Source: Bacteroidota bacterium
GTDB taxonomy: Bacteria; Bacteroidota; Bacteroidia; Chitinophagales; Chitinophagaceae
Assembly: GCA_031417635.1 (NCBI GenBank)
Contig: JANOVY010000078.1
Location: 16,795 to 80,794, forward strand
DNA length: 64,000 bases
Direction of reading: 5' to 3'
The notes below the pieces were generated by a model. That model did no database searches. It worked only from the letters and a program-made list of their open reading frames with translations, and was not told where the DNA came from. How positions within the stretch are numbered: position 1 is the first letter of the stretch; each line of letters opens with the position of its first letter. This document shows positions 8,086-33,584 of the stretch, in pieces. Both the position numbers and the translations under genes were made by a program.

Positions 8086-8093
8086 TTAATTAG

Positions 8094-8178
8094 TTTGTGG
8101 TTTGTGGTTTGTGGTTTGTGGTTGAATGGGTCATGTATTTTTTACAACTTCAGACCACAAACCACAGACTACAAACCA
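8094..8178. repeat. 7-bp-periodic palindromic element: (TTTGTGG)4 ... CCACAAA/CCACAGA/CTACAAA
   Basis: Read directly from the sequence between the pyrC stop and the mutS-like start. Confidence 0.9.
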
Positions 8179-14470: not shown

Positions 14471-14596
14471 TATTGTTATCATTTTAAAAAATGGGTGCCC
14501 ATTAGTGGAAAATCTGTGAAATATGTATAGAATGCATGACGAAAATCATTGTTAAAACAAAGTATCCATAATAACTTCACAGGACAATCATACACC

Positions 14597-15439
14597 ATGA
14601 AAAACATTTTAGTCCCTACCGATTTCTCAACAACCGCTCAAAATGCAACCTTGTATGCTTTACAATTAGCCGCACAATTGGGTGCAGCAAAAATTGTGTT
14701 GTACAATTCTTATGAGATACCGGTTACAATAGATCCGATGGTTCCCGGCGTACAAATGCTCGACATTGAATCTATCAAGGAAGGCAGTGAAAAAAGTTTG
14801 GAAAATGAAAAACACAAACTCTCTGCGTTAAACAAATCAATTGAAATTGAAACAATCAGCGAGTACGGCGCACTCACTGCCGGCTTAGATTCCATTTGTG
14901 AAAAAGCAGGTGCCGATTTAATTGTGATGGGTATTACGGGTGGTGGCTTACTTACTGAAAAACTAATTGGCAGCAATACCATTTCAGTGGCTAAGCATAC
15001 AAAAATACCGGTCATCATTGTACCCACAGACGCGAAATATACAAAGGTTTCACAGGTGATGTTGTTGAGTGATTTTGATCATGCAGATGAAACGATTCCC
15101 ATTGTTCCCGTAAGAAAATTATTAAAAGAAACAAATGGAAAGCTTTTCGTTTTCAATTTGGAAGAAGTGCCGGATGAATATGGAGTGATGTATCCCTCCA
15201 ATATGATGGGTGAGAGTTACGCTATGCATACATTACTGAAAGACTTGAACCCTGAATATCATTTTTCTCATAAGAAAAATTATATTGAAGCCGTGAATGA
15301 ATTTGCACATGAAAATGCGATAGACCTAATAATTACCATCCCAAAAAAACATAGTTTCATAGAGAGCTTCTTCAAAAGTTCACATACAAAAATGTTGGCT
15401 TTTCATAGCCATGTTCCTTTGATGGTAGTGCATGGGTGA
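14597..15439 (+). CDS. Universal stress protein (tandem Usp domains)
   Basis: MKNILVPTDFS, DLIVMGITG, IGSNT, PVIIVP. Confidence 0.9.
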   Translation: MKNILVPTDFSTTAQNATLYALQLAAQLGAAKIVLYNSYEIPVTIDPMVPGVQMLDIESIKEGSEKSLENEKHKLSALNKSIEIETISEYGALTAGLDSICEKAGADLIVMGITGGGLLTEKLIGSNTISVAKHTKIPVIIVPTDAKYTKVSQVMLLSDFDHADETIPIVPVRKLLKETNGKLFVFNLEEVPDEYGVMYPSNMMGESYAMHTLLKDLNPEYHFSHKKNYIEAVNEFAHENAIDLIITIPKKHSFIESFFKSSHTKMLAFHSHVPLMVVHG

Positions 15440-15448
15440 GGGAGGGAG

Positions 15449-15643
15449 TTTGGAGTTTGGAGTTTGGAGTTTGGGGTTTGGGGTTTGGGGTTTGGGGTTT
15501 GGGGTTTGGGGTTTGGAGTTTGGAGTTTGGAGTTTGGAGTTTGGAGTTTGGGGTTTGGAGTTTGGGGTTTGGGGTTTGGAGTGATTTATGTCTTCTACTC
15601 CAGACTTATAACCCCAAACACCAAACTCCAAACCCCCAACTAA
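15449..15643. repeat. 19 x (TTTGGAG/TTTGGGG) tandem heptamers plus a shorter inverted arm
   Basis: Units counted over 15449-15581; inverted arm CTCCAGA..CCCCAAA..CTCCAAA at about 15596-15643; lies between convergent usp and nadE. Confidence 0.95.
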
Positions 15644-17322
15644 CTCAAGTACTTCCCCACTATCGGCACTCTTCTTCCTACGCCAAAGGCTTTTGGAGAG
15701 ATTCTGATGATGGGACAAAATTGATTTCGTTTGTATTCATTGGTATTCACCAATTTTATTGTTCGATCAACCAGCGCATGATCATATCCTTGTGATTTGA
15801 TCTCTTCCGGACCTAATCGTTTCTCAATGTATTGATAGAGAATTTGATCTAGAATAGCATAATCGGGCAAACTATCACTATCTTTTTGATTGGGCCTTAG
15901 TTCTGCACTGGGTGCTTTTGTAATGATATTTTGAGGAATGATTTCTTTGTTTCTATTTATGTGGTTAGCCAAAGCATATACTTGTAATTTGTAACAATCA
16001 CCCAAAACACCCAGGCCGCCGGCCATATCACCATACAAAGTGCCATAACCGGTTGCTAACTCACTCTTATTGGAAGTATTGAGCAATATGTATCCGAATT
16101 TGTTTGCGATTGCCATTAATACATTACCCCTACTCCTACTTTGAATATTCTCTTCCGCCAAAGAAAAAGGTAAGTCTTTAAAAACAGGAGAAAGTGTTTG
16201 TAAAAATGTTTGATAAATTTCATCAATCCGAATAATGTCATAAGGATTGTCAAGTGCTTTACTTAATTGAATTGCATCATTAATTGAATGATCGGTAGAA
16301 TAAGGAGATGGCATTAATACTGCATGCACATTTTCTTTTCCCAATGCATCACAAGCGATGGCAAGGGTTACGGCTGAGTCAATTCCTCCGGATGAACCCA
16401 GAATCGCTTTTGTAAAACCCATTTTACCAAAATAATCACGGATACCCAATAGTAAAGCATCATACACTTGTGAAATATTCAAGGTAGGCTCCAAGGTTGC
16501 CGGGTTGAGTTCTTTATCCGGAACCCTATTTGCCGGTTCAAGTATGGGATGCTGGATGGTGCCATCGGCTAACAATTCAACACCTTCCATGGCTTCCGTG
16601 AACATGGGAAATGATTTACATAAATTCGCATGTTTATCAAATATTAATGAAGCACCATCAAAAACAACTTCTGTTTGGCTGCCGACTGCATTACAATAAA
16701 ATAGCGGAAGCTTGTATTTTAACACATTCGCTTTGATAACCGATTTTCTGTCTTCATCATGCGTATAATCAAAAGGCGAAGCACTAATGTTCAGCATTAC
16801 ATCGGGCTTTTGTTCCATCAGTTTATCCATCGGGCAAATGCGATACAATGGATTATCACCAAGGTTCCAAATATCTTCACAAATGGTAATGGCTAAACGC
16901 TTGCCTTTAAAAGGTACTACCTGCCAATGAAAGGAAGGTTCAAAATATCGATACTCATCAAATACATCATAGGTAGGTAATAAGGTTTTATGAATTTCTG
17001 CTTTCACTTCTTTTTCATAAAGAAAGAAGGCTGCATTAAATAAACTTTTTCCTTTTTGACCAATGTTTCTGGCCGGGCTTCCCAACAATACGCCGATGGT
17101 ATCTGCATGTTCTTTAATGATATTGATCGACTCATAGCATTTGCTAATAAAATCATTGAATTCAACAAAATCTCTGGCCGGATAACCACAAATACTCATC
17201 TCGCTAAACATAATTAAATCAGCACCTTCCGATTTAGCTTGTTTGATGGCTAGAATAATCTTTTCTCGATTACTTTCGAAATTACCTATGTGATAGTTTT
17301 GTTGGGCTAAAAAAATCTTCAT
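15640..17322 (-). CDS. nadE: Glutamine-dependent NAD+ synthetase
   Basis: N-terminal CN-hydrolase (FSEMSICGY, HKTLLP, TICEDIW) plus SSGGIDS, EENIQSR, NKSELATGY. Confidence 0.95.
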   Translation of the reverse strand: MKIFLAQQNYHIGNFESNREKIILAIKQAKSEGADLIMFSEMSICGYPARDFVEFNDFISKCYESINIIKEHADTIGVLLGSPARNIGQKGKSLFNAAFFLYEKEVKAEIHKTLLPTYDVFDEYRYFEPSFHWQVVPFKGKRLAITICEDIWNLGDNPLYRICPMDKLMEQKPDVMLNISASPFDYTHDEDRKSVIKANVLKYKLPLFYCNAVGSQTEVVFDGASLIFDKHANLCKSFPMFTEAMEGVELLADGTIQHPILEPANRVPDKELNPATLEPTLNISQVYDALLLGIRDYFGKMGFTKAILGSSGGIDSAVTLAIACDALGKENVHAVLMPSPYSTDHSINDAIQLSKALDNPYDIIRIDEIYQTFLQTLSPVFKDLPFSLAEENIQSRSRGNVLMAIANKFGYILLNTSNKSELATGYGTLYGDMAGGLGVLGDCYKLQVYALANHINRNKEIIPQNIITKAPSAELRPNQKDSDSLPDYAILDQILYQYIEKRLGPEEIKSQGYDHALVDRTIKLVNTNEYKRNQFCPIIRISPKAFGVGRRVPIVGKYLS

Positions 17323-17484: not shown

Positions 17485-18495
17485 ATGACTAAAATGAGGA
17501 ATGTTGTATTCATCTTTTGCCTACTTGTATTATTTGGGTGTAAAAGCAAAAAGGATATTCCGGATGTATCCGGCATATCTGTTACATTGAAAACTGAAAG
17601 ATTTGAGAAAGATTTTTTTTCAATGGACACTTTGCATCTGAACACTTCCCTCGCTAAATTAAACATTTTACATACAGGATTTACACAAGATTTCTTATTT
17701 AATATTCTAGGAACAACAACCGATAGCGCCCTAAAAAATATTCCTCAATTTATTTCGAGTTATCGTGATTTAAATGCTACGGCCGAAGAAAAGTTCACTA
17801 ATCTTGAACCCATTGAAAAAGAATTAAAACGAAGTTTTCAATTTGTACGCTATTACTTTCCAAAGTACCGATTACCAGAAAAATTGATCACATTCATAGG
17901 GCCCATCAATAGTTATGGAAGTATCATAACGCCAAATGCATTGGCCGTGGGGTTACAGTTGTACATGGGCAAAGACTATCCCCTCTATTTAAGTGAACAA
18001 GGCCAACAAATGTATCCATTGTACATGTCAAGAAAGTTTGAACCTGCTTATATTCCGGTCAATGGAATAAAAAATATAATTGATGATATGTACCCAAACA
18101 ATCTAAATGGAAAACCATTGGTTGAACAAATGATCGAGTCGGGTAAAAGAATGTATGTATTGGATAAATTAATGCCTGAAACACCGGATAGTATTAAAAC
18201 CGGGTACACACAAAAACAATTGGAGGGATGTATAGCCAGTGAGAAAAATATTTGGGTATTCTTTGTTCAGAATGATATGCTTTTTAATACCGACCCCAAT
18301 TTAACCCGCGATTACATGAGTGAAGGGCCCAGTACACCTGCATTAGGCGAAGCTTCTCCCGGTAATATTGGTCAGTTTGTTGGATGGCAAATGATAAAAA
18401 AATGGATGGATAAAAATCCAAAGACTTCATTAGATGACTTGATGAAAAAAAGCGCAAAAGAAATTTTCAATGAAGCAAAGTATAAGCCTGGGTAG
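17485..18495 (+). CDS. gldB: Gliding motility lipoprotein GldB
   Basis: Lipobox LFGC; RFEKDFF; GLQLYMG; SPGNIGQFVGWQMIKKWM; YKP end; divergent from nadE. Confidence 0.8.
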   Translation: MTKMRNVVFIFCLLVLFGCKSKKDIPDVSGISVTLKTERFEKDFFSMDTLHLNTSLAKLNILHTGFTQDFLFNILGTTTDSALKNIPQFISSYRDLNATAEEKFTNLEPIEKELKRSFQFVRYYFPKYRLPEKLITFIGPINSYGSIITPNALAVGLQLYMGKDYPLYLSEQGQQMYPLYMSRKFEPAYIPVNGIKNIIDDMYPNNLNGKPLVEQMIESGKRMYVLDKLMPETPDSIKTGYTQKQLEGCIASEKNIWVFFVQNDMLFNTDPNLTRDYMSEGPSTPALGEASPGNIGQFVGWQMIKKWMDKNPKTSLDDLMKKSAKEIFNEAKYKPG

Positions 18496-18502
18496 GGGGG
18501 AA

Positions 18503-18562
18503 GGTTTGGGGTTTGGGGTTTGGAGTTAGAAGTCTGGAGTTAGAAGTCTGGAGTTAGAAGTT
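18503..18562. repeat. Heptamer/14-mer repeat (TTTGGGG, TCTGGAG-TTAGAAG) between convergent gldB and apaG
   Basis: Read directly; same units as 15449 and 31332. Confidence 0.85.
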
Positions 18563-20670: not shown

Positions 20671-22326
20671 ATGGCTGAAGCAATTTTAATGCCTCGATTA
20701 AGTGATACTATGACGGAAGGCGTTATTGCTGCCTGGCATAAAAACGTAGGTGATAATGTAAAAAAGGGGGATTTATTGGCTGAAATTGAAACCGATAAAG
20801 CTACCATGGAACTGGAAAGTTATCAAGACGGCATATTACTACATAGAGGCACACCCGACGGTGGCAAAATTCAAGTAAATGATTTGTTAGCCATATTTGG
20901 AAAAAAAGGAGAAGATATCAGTTCGTTAATAGCAGAACATGCCGGCGGAGGCAAGTCGGGAGTTAAAAGTGAGGAGTCTGGAGTAAAAAAGGAGGCAGCC
21001 GTTGCTATTACCAATAACCAAAATCAATCAACTATGGACGTATCTGCTATGGAAGAAGTGGTATTAATGCCAAGATTAAGTGATACCATGACCGAAGGTG
21101 TAATTGCCGGTTGGCAAAAAAATGTAGGTGACACAGTTAAAAAAGGGGATGTGTTGGCAGATATTGAAACTGATAAAGCCACCATGGAATTGGAAAGTTA
21201 TAAAGATGGTATATTATTATATCAGGGTGCCAAAGCCGGTGAAAAAATTCTCGTAAATGATTTGCTTTGCATTATTGGTAAACAGGGTTTGGATATTGAT
21301 GCGATTGTTGCCTCTATTAAATCAGGATCGGGACAAGCCTCAACAGTTATTCCTCAAGAGACAACAGCAGCTAGCCAACCAACCACAGACAACAAACCAC
21401 AAACCACAGACAATGTTGTTTCACCCGAGGTTGTAAACGACGGTAGAATCCTAGCTTCTCCACTTGCCAAGAAAGTAGCATCAGAAAAAGGGATCGATCT
21501 TCGTTTTGTGAAAGGCACAGGTGATAATGGAAGAATTACAAAAACAGATATAGATAATTACACGCCTGCAACACCTGCTACAGTAAGTGTCGCTACTGCC
21601 GCAGCTGCTGTACCCGCTTCTAACATAGCAGTGCCTGCCGGTCAAGTTAGTTTTGAAGATGTGCCGGTATCACAAATGCGAAAAGTTATTGCCAAGCGTT
21701 TAAGTGAGAGCTTATTTACAGCACCTCATTTCTATTTAACCATGAGTATTGATATGGATGCAGCAGTTGCTGCAAGGGGAAAGATTAATGAAGTAGCACC
21801 GGTTAAAGTGAGTTTCAATGATATGGTATTAAAAGCTACCGCATTGGCATTAAAACAACACCCAAAAGTAAACAGTAGTTGGTTAGGTGATTCCATCCGC
21901 TACAATCATCATATCAATATAGGCGTAGCGGTAGCAGTGGAAGATGGATTATTGGTACCGGTGGTTCGATTTGCAGATGGCAAATCTTTGAGTCAAATTG
22001 GTGCTGAAGTAAAAGTATTTGCACAAAAAGCAAAAGATAAAAAATTGCAGCCTGCAGATTGGGAAGGAAGCACATTTACCATTTCTAATCTAGGCATGTT
22101 TGGTATTGAAGAATTCACCGCCATCATTAACCCGCCGGATGCCTGTATTTTAGCCATTGGTGGTATTTCACAGGTGCCCGTAGTTAAAAATGGTCAAGTC
22201 GTTCCCGGTAATGTAATGAAAGTAACCCTAAGTTGCGATCATCGTGCTGTTGATGGAGCAACCGGTGCTGCATTTTTACAAACACTGAAAAGTTTATTGG
22301 AAGAGCCTTTGCGGATGTTGGCATAG
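20671..22326 (+). CDS. pdhC: Pyruvate dehydrogenase E2, dihydrolipoamide acetyltransferase with two lipoyl domains
   Basis: Two ETDKATME lipoyl motifs, ASPLAKK E3-binding domain, DHRAVDG. Confidence 0.92.
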   Translation: MAEAILMPRLSDTMTEGVIAAWHKNVGDNVKKGDLLAEIETDKATMELESYQDGILLHRGTPDGGKIQVNDLLAIFGKKGEDISSLIAEHAGGGKSGVKSEESGVKKEAAVAITNNQNQSTMDVSAMEEVVLMPRLSDTMTEGVIAGWQKNVGDTVKKGDVLADIETDKATMELESYKDGILLYQGAKAGEKILVNDLLCIIGKQGLDIDAIVASIKSGSGQASTVIPQETTAASQPTTDNKPQTTDNVVSPEVVNDGRILASPLAKKVASEKGIDLRFVKGTGDNGRITKTDIDNYTPATPATVSVATAAAAVPASNIAVPAGQVSFEDVPVSQMRKVIAKRLSESLFTAPHFYLTMSIDMDAAVAARGKINEVAPVKVSFNDMVLKATALALKQHPKVNSSWLGDSIRYNHHINIGVAVAVEDGLLVPVVRFADGKSLSQIGAEVKVFAQKAKDKKLQPADWEGSTFTISNLGMFGIEEFTAIINPPDACILAIGGISQVPVVKNGQVVPGNVMKVTLSCDHRAVDGATGAAFLQTLKSLLEEPLRMLA

Positions 22327-22332
22327 AGAGAC

Positions 22333-22465
22333 AATTAGTAATTAGTAGTAAATAATTAGTAATAATAAAGGGGTAAGTTGAAATCAATATTGATTACAAT
22401 TTACCCCTTTAATGTATCTTTTATTTCGCAATAATTGCTAACTACTAATTTCTAATTACTAATTA
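22333..22465. repeat. 7-bp-periodic palindromic element (AATTAGT arms) around a central AAAGGGGTAA...TTACCCCTTT hairpin; probable bidirectional terminator
   Basis: Between convergent genes; inverted arms visible. Confidence 0.75.
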
Positions 22466-25092: not shown

Positions 25093-25599
25093 TTACGACT
25101 TTTTACCGCCATTGCCAACAAATGGCTCTTCAGGAGTAAAAAGTGTGGGTATTTCAACAGGGGCCGGTATCACAGGCGCAGGAGCTACAACGGGGGCCGC
25201 TACAGGAACAAGGGCCGGTTGTTTAGCAGCTACTTTTCTCTTGGGTGCCGGTTTTTTAGGTGCCGACTTTACAGCTTTTTTAACAACAGCTTTTTTAGCA
25301 ACAGCTTTTTTAGCAGCTACTTTTTTCTTGGGAGCTGCCTTTTTAGCAACTGCTTTTTTAACTACTTTTTTAGCAGCTACCTTTTTCTTGGGAGCCGCTT
25401 TTTTAGCAACTGCTTTTTTAACTGCTACTTTTTTCTTAGGGGCTGCTGTTTTTTTCTTTGCCACTTTCTTAGTAGCTACTTTTTTCTTTGGAGCAGTTTT
25501 TTTAGCTGCTTTTTTAGCTACAGGTTTTTTAGCTGCTGCTTTCTTTGCTGTTTTTTTGGGCGCTACTTTTTTAGCAACCTTTTTTTTAGATTTTTCCAT
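25093..25599 (-). CDS. Histone H1-like Lys/Ala-rich protein
   Basis: Repeated [13 protein letters not shown] units; Pro-rich C-tail; own terminator. Confidence 0.75.
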
Positions 25600-25713
25600 G
25601 ATGGTATTGGTTTGTATATGTTTAAAGATGAGATTGGAAAGTTAAAAAAATATTTTTGTAAATATCACTTTTTATTCATTGATAAAGTTTATTTAATTAT
25701 CACCCTATCTGTA

Positions 25714-30375: not shown

Positions 30376-32406
30376 TTAATAGTCAATTAGTTTTTTTATA
30401 TAATCCCCTAATCGGGACTTAGCCATGAAATTTTTTTCCAATTCAATATTAAAGGGAATGGGTGTATCTAAAGAACCACATCGCAATACTGGTGCATCTA
30501 ACAATTCGAAACAATGTTCACTTATCCAAGCGCTAATTTCGCCGCCAAGCCCACCCATTAAAGTATCTTCATGTAATAGCAATACTTTCCCGGTTTGTGA
30601 AACCGCTTCCTTAATAGCGGGATAATCCAACGGTAATAAAGTTCTCAAATCTAGAATATGCAATGATATTTCCGGATATAGTTCTTGGTATTCTGTAGCC
30701 CAATGTACACCAGCGCCATAAGTAATCACTGAAATATCATCTCCTTTTTTTACTAGTCTTGCTTTACCTATTTCAACTTCATAATAGGTTTCAGGCACCA
30801 ACTCGGATACACTTCTATACAAAGCCTTATGCTCAAAAAATAAAACAGGATTGGGATCATTAATGGCAGCTATCAATAATCCCTTTGCATCGTGGGGTGT
30901 TGATGGATATACTACTTTGAGTCCGGGCACATGTGTAAACCAGGCTTCATTACATTGTGAATGAAACGGGCCTGCGCCTACTCCACCACCTGTGGGCATT
31001 CGAATAACCACATCTGCATTTTGCCCCCACCGATAATGCATCTTGGCTAAATTGTTTACAATTTGATTAAATCCAACAGTCACAAAATCGCCAAACTGCA
31101 TTTCCATTACACTCTTATAGCCTTCCAAACTTAGTCCCAATGCAGTACCCACAATAGCACTTTCACACAAGGGTGTATTTCGAACCCTTTCTTTTCCAAA
31201 TGTTTCTACAAACCCTTCTGTAATTTTAAAAGCTCCGCCATATTCTGCAATATCTTGGCCCATTAAAATCAAATTGGGATGCTGTTGCATGCTTTGGTGA
31301 AGGGCAGATTTGATGGCATCTACTAAGCGTAAGTCTGGAGTTTGGAGTCTGGAGTTTGGAGTTATGATTAGTGAATTTGGTGTATCAATTATTTCTACTC
31401 CAGACTCCAGACTCCTAACTCCTAACTTTTCTGCATATACATCCTCCAATTCTTCGTCCGTATTGGGAATAATTTTTTCTTCTTGTTCGGCTAGTTTTAT
31501 TTCATCTTCAATATGTTTTTTGAACTCATTTCTAATATCAGCCACCTGCATTTCAGAGATAATATTCTCAGAAATTAGAAATTGCTCATAATTTTTAATA
31601 GGATCTTTTCTGCCCCATTCTTCAAACATTTCCTTAGGTACATATTTGGTACCACTGGCTTCTTCATGGCCACGCATCCGAAAGGTGATGCACTCTATCA
31701 AATATGGCTTTTGTTGTTGAATGCAATACGCACGTACGCCTTTAATGGTATCATATACTTCCAATATATTATTACCATCAATGCGAATGCCTTCCATTCC
31801 ATATCCTTTTGCTTTATCTATTAAATGATCACATCGGTATTGTTCATTTACCGGCGTACTTAACCCATAGCCATTATTTTCTATTACAAATATTACCGGC
31901 AAATCCCAAACGGCAGCAACATTCAGGGCCTCATGAAAATCGCCTTCACTGGTTCCGCCATCACCACTATATGCAAGCGATACTTTGTTTTCTTTTCTAA
32001 GTTTATATGCCAATGCTACCCCATCTGCAATGGCCAATTGCGGTCCTAGATGCGAAATCATTCCACAGATATGATGGTCTTTGCTTCCAAAGTGAAAACT
32101 TCTCTCTCTGCCTTTACTATACCCTTCTTTATTACCCTGCCATTGCATAAATAATTTATGCAATGGCATTTGTCGCGAAGTAAATACACCTAAGTTTCTA
32201 TGCAATGGCATTATCCATTCATCTTGTTGTAAAGCCAATGTACTTCCCACAGAAATGGCTTCCTGACCAATTCCACTAAACCATTTACTTATTTTACCTT
32301 GCCTAAGCAATACCAACATTTTTTCTTCAATCATTCGCGGCAAAAGAAGCTGCCTATATAGAAATATGAGTTCTTCGCTTGTAAAATTTTGACGATTGTA
32401 ATGCAT
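30376..32406 (-). CDS. Fused 2-oxoacid dehydrogenase E1 alpha/beta (branched-chain/pyruvate type)
   Basis: GDGGTSEG...NN TPP motif, RMRGHEE, TPLCES, EMQFGDF, FFEHKALY. Confidence 0.9.
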   Translation of the reverse strand: MHYNRQNFTSEELIFLYRQLLLPRMIEEKMLVLLRQGKISKWFSGIGQEAISVGSTLALQQDEWIMPLHRNLGVFTSRQMPLHKLFMQWQGNKEGYSKGRERSFHFGSKDHHICGMISHLGPQLAIADGVALAYKLRKENKVSLAYSGDGGTSEGDFHEALNVAAVWDLPVIFVIENNGYGLSTPVNEQYRCDHLIDKAKGYGMEGIRIDGNNILEVYDTIKGVRAYCIQQQKPYLIECITFRMRGHEEASGTKYVPKEMFEEWGRKDPIKNYEQFLISENIISEMQVADIRNEFKKHIEDEIKLAEQEEKIIPNTDEELEDVYAEKLGVRSLESGVEIIDTPNSLIITPNSRLQTPDLRLVDAIKSALHQSMQQHPNLILMGQDIAEYGGAFKITEGFVETFGKERVRNTPLCESAIVGTALGLSLEGYKSVMEMQFGDFVTVGFNQIVNNLAKMHYRWGQNADVVIRMPTGGGVGAGPFHSQCNEAWFTHVPGLKVVYPSTPHDAKGLLIAAINDPNPVLFFEHKALYRSVSELVPETYYEVEIGKARLVKKGDDISVITYGAGVHWATEYQELYPEISLHILDLRTLLPLDYPAIKEAVSQTGKVLLLHEDTLMGGLGGEISAWISEHCFELLDAPVLRCGSLDTPIPFNIELEKNFMAKSRLGDYIKKLIDY
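31332..31427. repeat. Palindromic heptamer element in frame within the E1 alpha-beta linker
   Basis: AGTCTGG/AGTTTGG x4 ... ACTCCAG x2/ACTCCTA x2; encodes LGVRSLESGV...TPNSRLQTPD. Confidence 0.85.
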
Positions 32407-33394: not shown

Positions 33395-33504
33395 ATTTTA
33401 AAATTTAGTAAGTACAAATATATAGAAACTAATAGAGGTTTGGAGGAATGGATGTTTAAGGAATTCTTAAAATTTAAAGAGGTGTATCGGGAGAAATGAA
33501 TCCT

Positions 33505-33567
33505 GAGTGGTGAGACGTCAGTAGTGAGTATTTTTTTAGAGTACTCACGACTGACGTCTCACTACTC
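33505..33567. repeat. Palindromic element GTGAGACGTCAGT.GTGAG (26-bp arms, 2 mismatches), copy 1
   Basis: Near-identical core at 36862-36940. Confidence 0.9.
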
Positions 33568-33584
33568 ACTATAATCCTTTTCAA

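Follow-up and report, generated by a model that had tools for sequence, protein, structure and literature searches.

A translated heptamer-repeat palindrome in the alpha-beta linker of a fused E1 dehydrogenase from a Chitinophagaceae genome

How does a palindrome built from seven-base repeats come to be translated within an enzyme of central metabolism? This question is raised by a stretch of 64,000 nucleotides (nt) from the assembly GCA_031417635.1 (contig JANOVY010000078.1, forward strand, positions 16,795-80,794), which is called the window in the following and to which all coordinates without a contig name refer. The window belongs to a Sediminibacterium-like metagenome-assembled genome (MAG) of the Chitinophagaceae, here named G000, which consists of 227 contigs and has a size of 3.93 Mb and a GC content of 36.6%. 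The window contains a gene for a fused alpha/beta E1 component of a 2-oxo-acid dehydrogenase complex, in which the linker between the two modules is encoded by a heptamer palindrome. The element is a translated member of the heptamer-repeat palindromes of this genome, a class that is normally located directly behind stop codons. We consider it probable that the linker is a permissive site, which has been rewritten repeatedly by the repeat dynamics of the genome, with selection for an open frame as the filter.

The E1 gene of the window clusters with records from Sediminibacterium and other Chitinophagaceae. A single polypeptide carries the thiamine pyrophosphate-binding alpha domain E1_dh, followed by the beta domains Transket_pyr and Transketolase_C (Pfam E = 1.2e-80, 5.6e-38 and 4.1e-25, respectively), which is the domain order of a fused E1 alpha/beta protein. 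E1_dh covers amino acids (aa) 19-311 and Transket_pyr aa 362-531. In comparisons with chains of branched-chain 2-oxo-acid dehydrogenase (BCKDH) and other 2-oxo-acid E1 enzymes from the PDB, the alpha subunits match aa 9-327, while the matches of the beta subunits begin at aa 351-361 and run to aa 676. Because the alpha matches stop at aa 327 and the beta matches start at aa 351-361, the element, which corresponds to aa 327-359, makes up the whole linker between the modules. Relatives of the protein are annotated by the Joint Genome Institute (JGI) as '2-oxoisovalerate dehydrogenase E1 component', and the scores of the NCBIfam models for pyruvate dehydrogenase (PDH) stayed under their cut-offs. 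The translation of the open reading frame (ORF), the Pfam domains and the PDB matches thus agree with the original prediction, which was made from the DNA letters and placed the element in frame in the alpha-beta linker with the peptide LGVRSLESGV...TPNSRLQTPD. It had also been proposed to look for a disordered loop by structure prediction. In an AlphaFold2 model based on 62 input sequences, aa 321-350 have a predicted local distance difference test (pLDDT) score of 23-28 and aa 324-360 lack secondary structure. The linker is therefore predicted to be disordered. G000 also possesses a second fused E1 protein, which is 33% identical (C106:18478-20424), as well as separate alpha-like and beta-like E1 genes (C4:10664-11626 and C58:97680-98567).

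The element forms an imperfect palindrome of 98 bases (31331-31428), in which two heptamer arms of 32 nt, 88% complementary to each other, enclose a loop of 34 nt. On the plus strand, the arm at 31332-31362 consists of 4.6 copies of AGTCTGG/AGTTTGG, or alternatively of 2.2 copies of a 14-mer with 100% identity, and the arm at 31397-31427 contains 2.7 copies of ACTCCAG followed by 2.4 copies of ACTCCTA. Read in the frame of the E1 gene, the region is translated as YAEK LGVRSLESGV EIIDTPNSLII TPNSRLQTPD LRLVDAIK, and the predicted tryptic peptide across the element is SLESGVEIIDTPNSLIITPNSR. An Rfam search of the element yielded no family and only far sub-threshold matches to plant microRNA precursors, which are generic long hairpins. 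The units TTAGGAG, TCTGGAG and TTTGGAG contain no GGG run, so the element does not provide the G3-4 tract per unit, over about four units, that a G-quadruplex needs.

It could be argued that such a periodicity arises by chance, from base composition or from faulty assembly, as the genome is a MAG in many contigs and repeats are prone to misassembly. However, the motif GGAGTYTGGAGT occurs 13 times in the window compared to 0.01 occurrences expected from shuffled sequences, and 12 of these matches lie within 15445-15547 or the E1 element, the exception being at 20973. The identity of the element with itself at a lag of seven bases is 0.61 and drops to 0.26 at other lags. The mRNA strand folds with -46.2 kcal/mol, compared to -20.1 +/- 3.3 kcal/mol for dinucleotide shuffles (z = -8.0), and none of 200 shuffles folds as well. 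Moreover, the reading frame is intact, and independent assemblies, one of them a metagenome contig from JGI, have homologous elements at this site. An origin by chance or misassembly is thus hardly credible.

The E1 element has relatives between the genes of the same window. The original prediction had rightly assigned it to the same heptamer family as arrays at 15449 and 18503, and both arrays proved to be real and to adjoin stop codons. The array at 15445-15582 begins 6 nt past the stop of the ORF 14549-15439. The inverted partner of this array, at 15610-15641, comes to an end at the stop codon of ORF 15640-17322, which is in convergent orientation. The window contains further intergenic palindromes of other unit families (Table 1). 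In some intergenic palindromes, for instance at 22333-22464 and in G000 at C195:27877-28025, a second, ordinary-looking GC hairpin lies within the loop, which gives the impression that a terminator was there first and that the heptamer arms grew up around it.

The class is also abundant on the level of the whole genome. Tandem Repeats Finder (TRF) reported 758 arrays with a period of 7 in G000, compared to 115 with period 6 and 312 with period 8, and the period-7 arrays fall into about 180 unit families. An inverted partner within 120 nt was found for 143 of 612 merged arrays but for only 2 of 612 random segments. In total, G000 contains 103 heptamer palindromes (median length, 89 nt), each consisting of two inverted arrays of three to six seven-base units around a loop that is not conserved among the copies. 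Of these, 31 are located in convergent, 51 in tandem and 11 in divergent gaps, and 4 inside genes. Convergent gaps thus host 31 of the 93 intergenic palindromes, yet they make up only 15% of all gaps. Between tandem genes, the palindrome starts at a median distance of 6 nt past the upstream stop; between convergent genes, the arms adjoin both stops. The polarity is strongly biased: the 5' arm contains more G than C in 95 of 103 palindromes, and among lone arrays in the vicinity of a stop, the sense strand is the G-rich one in 129 cases compared to 50. ORFs of at least 200 aa harbour 69 arrays, which are mostly lone or weak, and full palindromes within genes are limited to the four mentioned above. 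A blastn search of the whole assembly revealed that the E1 arms match at least 20 other loci over 24-33 nt. By contrast, the 34-nt loop matched only itself, the other matches in the assembly being 12-18 nt long with E >= 0.03. A palindrome family with longer units, AATATTGAACAAGGAATTTTGAAT and its complement, shows far stronger conservation of its arms than the heptamer families do and may be a distinct repeat (G000 examples: C119:58293-58388, C182:1445-1531, C187:16312-16402 and C196:2963-3056).

Heptamer repeats have been described in other bacteria. The GGGAATC repeats of Xanthomonas and the GGGGAYT repeats of Nostoc are mostly intergenic, lie near stop codons and have the G-rich strand as the sense strand (Rehm et al. 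2015, PMC4692102). Heptanucleotide repeats are generally in excess in bacteria, as Mrazek (2007) is summarised in PMC4679880. The arrays of G000 share several properties with this class of simple sequence repeats (SSR), or short tandemly repeated repetitive (STRR) sequences, as far as it is portrayed in these sources: tandem 7-nt units with a genome-wide over-representation of period 7, an intergenic position tens of bases from a stop with the G-rich strand as sense strand, rarity between divergent genes, dozens of inverted pairs that could fold into stem-loops and under-representation in coding DNA. The E1 element belongs to this known repeat class and is not a new kind of element. However, G000 differs in that its host is a member of the Chitinophagaceae (Bacteroidota), that it has many unit families rather than one, and that copies are translated within enzymes, with a turnover of the units in these copies among close relatives. 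Moreover, most units of G000, including GGAGTYT, lack the G3-4 tracts for G-quadruplexes, and only the GGGGTTT family qualifies. The TAACTGA direct repeats found in Beggiatoaceae, Cyanobacteria and a few Bacteroidetes (MacGregor 2015, PMC4679880) are likewise intergenic heptamer arrays anchored near gene boundaries, but they consist of a single, direct unit just upstream of start codons, with one inverted repeat reported, and are untranslated. A search of the accessible literature found no paper linking heptamer repeats with Chitinophagaceae, Sediminibacterium or Chitinophaga.

Has the element been inserted recently into the E1 gene? For answering this question, 106 E1 orthologues from Chitinophagaceae and other families of the order were aligned, of which 27 came from a genome search and 79 from genome contigs, and a tree was built with the linker masked. 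A linker was regarded as heptamer-periodic if its lag-7 identity was at least 0.5, as lacking periodicity if it was below 0.4, and as significantly folded at z <= -3. The closest relatives (L031, with 86% aa identity, L034, L037, L040, L033, L035 and L044) carry the element at the same site and with the same heptamer codons, and the start of the loop, ATAATTGATAC, encoding the peptide IID, is common to them and the E1 protein of the window. The copy of L031 is even more perfect, having a stem of 31 bp without mismatch and a folding energy of -69 kcal/mol. In a search of metagenome contigs with a degenerate arm-loop pattern, this form recurred identically in one independent JGI contig; the exact loop pattern had no match in metagenome contigs. 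As the same element and codons are present in close relatives, the comparison indicates that the E1 element is inherited and not a new insertion. The expectation of a lineage-specific insertion of about 30 aa with clean boundaries was not borne out either, because the repeat-free orthologues keep a linker of 17-28 aa; the median linker length is 30 aa with repeats and 23 aa without. Moreover, the situation that would have made the periodicity coincidental, namely the same peptide encoded by unrelated codons, was not encountered: the shared peptide always comes with shared heptamer codons.

Heptamer-periodic linkers are found in 39 of the 106 orthologues (other lags average about 0.25), of which 17 also fold significantly. 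They are spread across several clades of the E1 tree, but none occurs among the orthologues from the small-genome part of the genus or from the other families of the order. The G-rich arm is the 5' arm in 32 of the 39 repeat-bearing linkers. The units differ between lineages and include GGAGTYT, GCGGGTT, GTCGTGA, GAATCGT, TACGGGT, GTTTCTC, CTGGATA, AGTCAAT and CCATGGT. Within the closest clade, L043 and L031 share the loop but have different units on both arms. Thus, it appears most likely from these comparisons that the linker has carried heptamer arrays since before the closest relatives split, and it has probably done so through much of the history of the Chitinophagaceae.

The probable reading given at the outset comprises several steps. 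Units would be gained and lost through replication slippage, and one arm would be corrected against the other through template switching. In addition, there would be exchange with heptamer arrays elsewhere in the genome, or a mutational drive shared with them, so that the units inside the gene would follow the repertoire of that genome. Selection would act only as a filter, requiring an open frame and a tolerable linker; therefore, only stop-free units or units edited by a single base would survive within genes. At the protein level, the product would be a flexible spacer of low complexity.

The relationship between E1 units and genome repertoire is indeed visible when doubled units are counted in G000 and in five genomes with different E1 linker units. 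In the order G077, G078, G079, G080, G081 and G000, the counts are 97, 7, 43, 0, 0 and 30 for GGAGTYT, 7, 0, 27, 0, 7 and 1 for GTCGTGA, 0, 0, 0, 0, 9 and 0 for GTTTCTC, and 1, 0, 0, 7, 0 and 0 for ACGGGWT. Each of these four units reaches its top count in the genome whose E1 linker uses it, and is present there at several other loci as well. The exception is GCGGGTT, for which triple units with up to two mismatches were counted (0, 3, 0, 5 and 0 in G077 to G081; G000 has no doubled unit): its carrier G078 has three hits, one of which is the E1 element itself, compared to five in G080, the genome with the similar unit ACGGGWT. Every E1 unit tested recurs elsewhere in its own genome. Furthermore, the density of period-7 arrays is 193 and 175 per Mb in G000 and G077, which have the E1 element, and 95 and 32 per Mb in G018 and G012, from which it is absent. 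Outside genes, the arrays must turn over fast because orthologous intergenic sites of G000 and G077, with flanks that are 66-90% identical, often have an array in one genome only or arrays of different families.

The E1 gene is not the only gene of G000 with a translated palindrome. The repeat-coded peptide K[SL]GVRSLE[SL]GV ... LQTP[DN]S is also present within two unrelated enzymes, a duplicated ATP-binding cassette (ABC) ATPase resembling GsiA/YejF and a flavoprotein of the TIGR00275 family, and together the three proteins share K/Q-[SL]-[GE]-VRSLE[SL]GV ... LQTP/LLTP. Three further long ORFs hold shorter stretches of the peptide. In the ABC ATPase, the palindrome occupies the same inter-domain linker in G077 and G079, and the copy of G000 is 28 aa longer than theirs because its 3' arm has grown to about 11 units. 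A structural beta-hairpin is the site of the repeat in the flavoprotein; 26 of 29 orthologues align with no more than a single-residue gap, and the heptamer periodicity is limited to the nearest, large-genome relatives. The ancestral codons CAG TCT GAA GT. were already similar to a repeat unit. The flavoprotein repeat represents overwriting with essentially no change in length rather than insertion. The idea that a repeat-spreading process adds new peptide to the E1 enzyme can thus be kept in part: the peptide does recur in unrelated enzymes, but the change amounts to a replacement plus a few residues, and the element has been inherited.

The translated copies also bear the traces of the reading frame. 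The four palindromes within genes all come from the GGAGTYT/GGGGTTT group of families, in which the main units contain no stop on either arm, and three of them use GGAGTCT/GGAGTTA. In the three clear copies, the alternating TCTGGAG/TTAGGAG arm is always read in the one phase that yields no TAG. By contrast, the two commonest unit families of G000, GTGAAAA and AGTAATT, are not stop-free and do not turn up within genes. Among 75 translated arms of E1 orthologues, a perfect consensus array would bring an in-frame stop in 14, and in all 14 the real codon is a non-stop codon, usually with one base changed (six are TGA to TCA). For instance, a perfect TTAGGAG array would create an in-frame TAG in the element of the window, where the actual codon is CTG. 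At the level of the sequence, selection for an open frame is visible as stop-avoiding edits.

The recurrence of the peptide in unrelated genes and of the arm sequences at 20 or more loci could also be explained by a mobile palindromic element, such as a miniature inverted-repeat transposable element (MITE) or a Rickettsia palindromic element (RPE), which would have been inserted into the permissive linker by transposition in each lineage. Unrelated units and loops in sister orthologues and the presence/absence differences between G000 and G077 would fit such a scenario. However, neither terminal inverted repeats apart from the arrays nor a target-site duplication was found at the boundaries of the E1 element, and there is no conserved internal sequence since the loop is unique, which led us to reject the MITE interpretation. 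The flavoprotein repeat replaces sequence at essentially unchanged length, and the closest clade has retained its loop despite changes in the units of the arms. As far as RPEs are described in PMC10969869 (citing Ogata et al.), they resemble the elements of G000 in being palindromic repeats in frame in unrelated metabolic genes and in adding a shared peptide at a structurally tolerant place. Yet RPEs form families of about 150 bp with a conserved full-length consensus and are discrete insertions according to that account, whereas in G000 only the heptamer arms are shared, and the E1 element is inherited and rewritten in place, so that the length can stay unchanged. The analogy with RPEs and STRR sequences drawn by the original prediction is therefore a reasonable resemblance, which in the case of RPEs does not extend to consensus and mode of insertion. 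Recurrent insertion of a mobile element is unlikely in our opinion, and the same applies to transposition of the E1 element itself.

Repetitive extragenic palindromes (REP) and their paired forms (REPIN), which are mobilised by REP-associated tyrosine transposases (RAYT) of the Y1 type, offer another comparison. They, too, are short palindromes outside genes that lie at gene 3' ends and exist in hundreds of dispersed copies, but the heptamer arms of G000 have no fixed consensus. G000 has four Y1 genes, and Y1 counts rise with heptamer density across five genomes (4; 2 strong and 2 close to the cut-off; 1 strong and 2 close to it; 0-1; 0). However, no heptamer palindrome lies within 1.5 kb of the four Y1 genes, with a short period-7/14 array near the C13 copy. 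Three of the four are flanked by repeated short GC-rich hairpins, each gene having its own kind, which resembles classical REP/RAYT pairs, and the hairpin beside the C13 gene is less clear. The Y1 genes, the only ones of the RAYT-like type, thus lie next to other hairpins than the repeats they would have to mobilise, and a RAYT/REPIN system was rejected as the mobiliser of the heptamers.

A different explanation would be that the mRNA or DNA structure itself is selected, either as a pause site for the ribosome during co-translational folding of the alpha module or as a site for processing or stability, and is kept by compensatory changes. Indeed, the fold is strong and located exactly at the domain boundary, and heptamer periodicity goes along with a significant hairpin in 17 orthologues. 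Moreover, the two arms of the same linker pair better (-29.0 kcal/mol) than arms taken from different orthologues (-19.6 kcal/mol; 41 repeat-bearing linkers, permutation p < 1e-4). However, 22 of the 39 repeat-bearing linkers lack a significant fold, and 53 of the 106 orthologues lack periodicity although the fused enzyme has been kept. As such elements are also found behind stop codons and within unrelated genes, they have no specific link to E1, and matching of the arms can arise mechanically via template switching. We regard a selected structure as quite unlikely. The hairpin in the mRNA is most likely a tolerated by-product, and it is its neutrality that we infer here.

The element might also be a relic of gene fusion, in which a palindrome hugging the stop between once-separate alpha and beta genes became the linker upon loss of the stop codon. 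This would be in line with the position of the palindromes next to stops and with the fact that they can be open in all frames; moreover, in E1 and the ABC ATPase, two of the three clear copies within genes, the palindrome joins modules that are encoded by separate genes in other organisms. However, fused E1 proteins without heptamer periodicity exist in the other families of the order (L022-L030), and therefore the fusion appears to be older than the repeats. Furthermore, the flavoprotein copy sits inside a single domain. A fusion relic is thus very improbable.

Several observations weigh against repeated rewriting by ordinary repeat dynamics. The sister orthologues L073 and L096 differ wholly in units and loops, for which wholesale replacement is a better fit than gradual local change. 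Correction of one arm against the other is not universal because several linkers (L032, L042, L039 and L048) hold two arrays that do not pair together. As for the slippage, template-switching and conversion steps, we infer them from sequence comparison. The E1 model is only moderate overall, with a mean pLDDT of 66, and the genome-wide position counts rest on gene calls by a simple longest-ORF caller. Finally, the density comparison covers four and the unit counts six genomes, which are related and hence not independent samples; because the genomes are few and related, both results constitute a pattern and not a test.

Conceivably, the Chitinophagaceae have an active and polar process of repeat writing or conversion, which would overwrite intergenic as well as coding DNA with the genome's own units and remodel linkers and beta-hairpins in a length-neutral manner. 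Such a process would always place the G-rich array 5' and its complement 3', and it might take the form of templated extension of 3' ends or of template switching at breaks or stalled forks. If this were true, the E1 linker would be a read-out of an undescribed, possibly enzyme-driven, mutational mechanism. At present, we consider this possibility doubtful and prefer to view the linker as a permissive site shaped by repeat dynamics and an open-frame filter. The features mentioned in the text are listed in Table 1. Apart from the heptamer arrays, the window contains tandem repeats of 12-60 nt at 25250-25600 (minus strand), which encode a Lys/Ala-rich, histone-H1-like protein of low complexity.

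Table 1 Location of the E1 element, of related heptamer arrays and of other features discussed in the text
Feature	Position	Strand	Description
Fused E1 alpha/beta gene	30376..32406	minus	676 aa, 2-oxo-acid dehydrogenase complex (BCKDH/PDH-type) by sequence; ORF, Pfam and PDB matches
5' arm in mRNA, G-rich	31397..31428	minus	TTAGGAG, TTAGGAG, TCTGGAG, TCTGGAG; encodes K LGVRSLESGV
Loop	31363..31396	minus	Encodes EIIDTPNSLII; unique in genome
3' arm in mRNA, C-rich	31331..31362	minus	CTCCAAA/CTCCAGA x4; encodes TPNSRLQTPDL
Intergenic heptamer palindrome, E1-element family	15445..15641		GGAGTTT/GGGGTTT x19.7 and short inverted partner, between convergent stops
Lone heptamer/14-mer array	18503..18561	plus	GGTTTGG, TGGAGTTAGAAGTC; begins 8 nt past stop of ORF 17485-18495
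Intergenic heptamer palindrome	8091..8178		GTTTGTG/ACCACAA, between tandem genes
Intergenic heptamer palindrome	22333..22464		AATTAGT/TAATTAC, between convergent genes; extra hairpin in loop
Intergenic heptamer palindrome	33501..33571		GTGAGTA/GTGAGAC family, in a tandem gene pair two genes away from E1
GsiA/YejF-like duplicated ABC ATPase	G000:C148:25437-27359		Palindrome in inter-domain linker; locus L111
TIGR00275 aminoacetone-oxidase-family flavoprotein	G000:C180:20300-21628		Heptamer palindrome; locus L112/L115
Y1 (IS200/RAYT-like) transposase genes, four	G000:C115:27563-28027, C223:4163-4624, C13:5574-6035, C34:32834-33262		About 143-159 aa

Taken together, a class of heptamer repeats that is known as intergenic from cyanobacteria and Xanthomonas also contributes translated sequence to core enzymes of a Bacteroidota family, and single-base edits show that selection keeps the frame open. 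For annotation and work on protein families, this accounts for linkers that resemble lineage-specific inserts of low complexity. The fixed polarity, the turnover of units and the overwriting at constant length point to a mutational process for which the sites in E1, the ABC ATPase and the flavoprotein are natural reporters.

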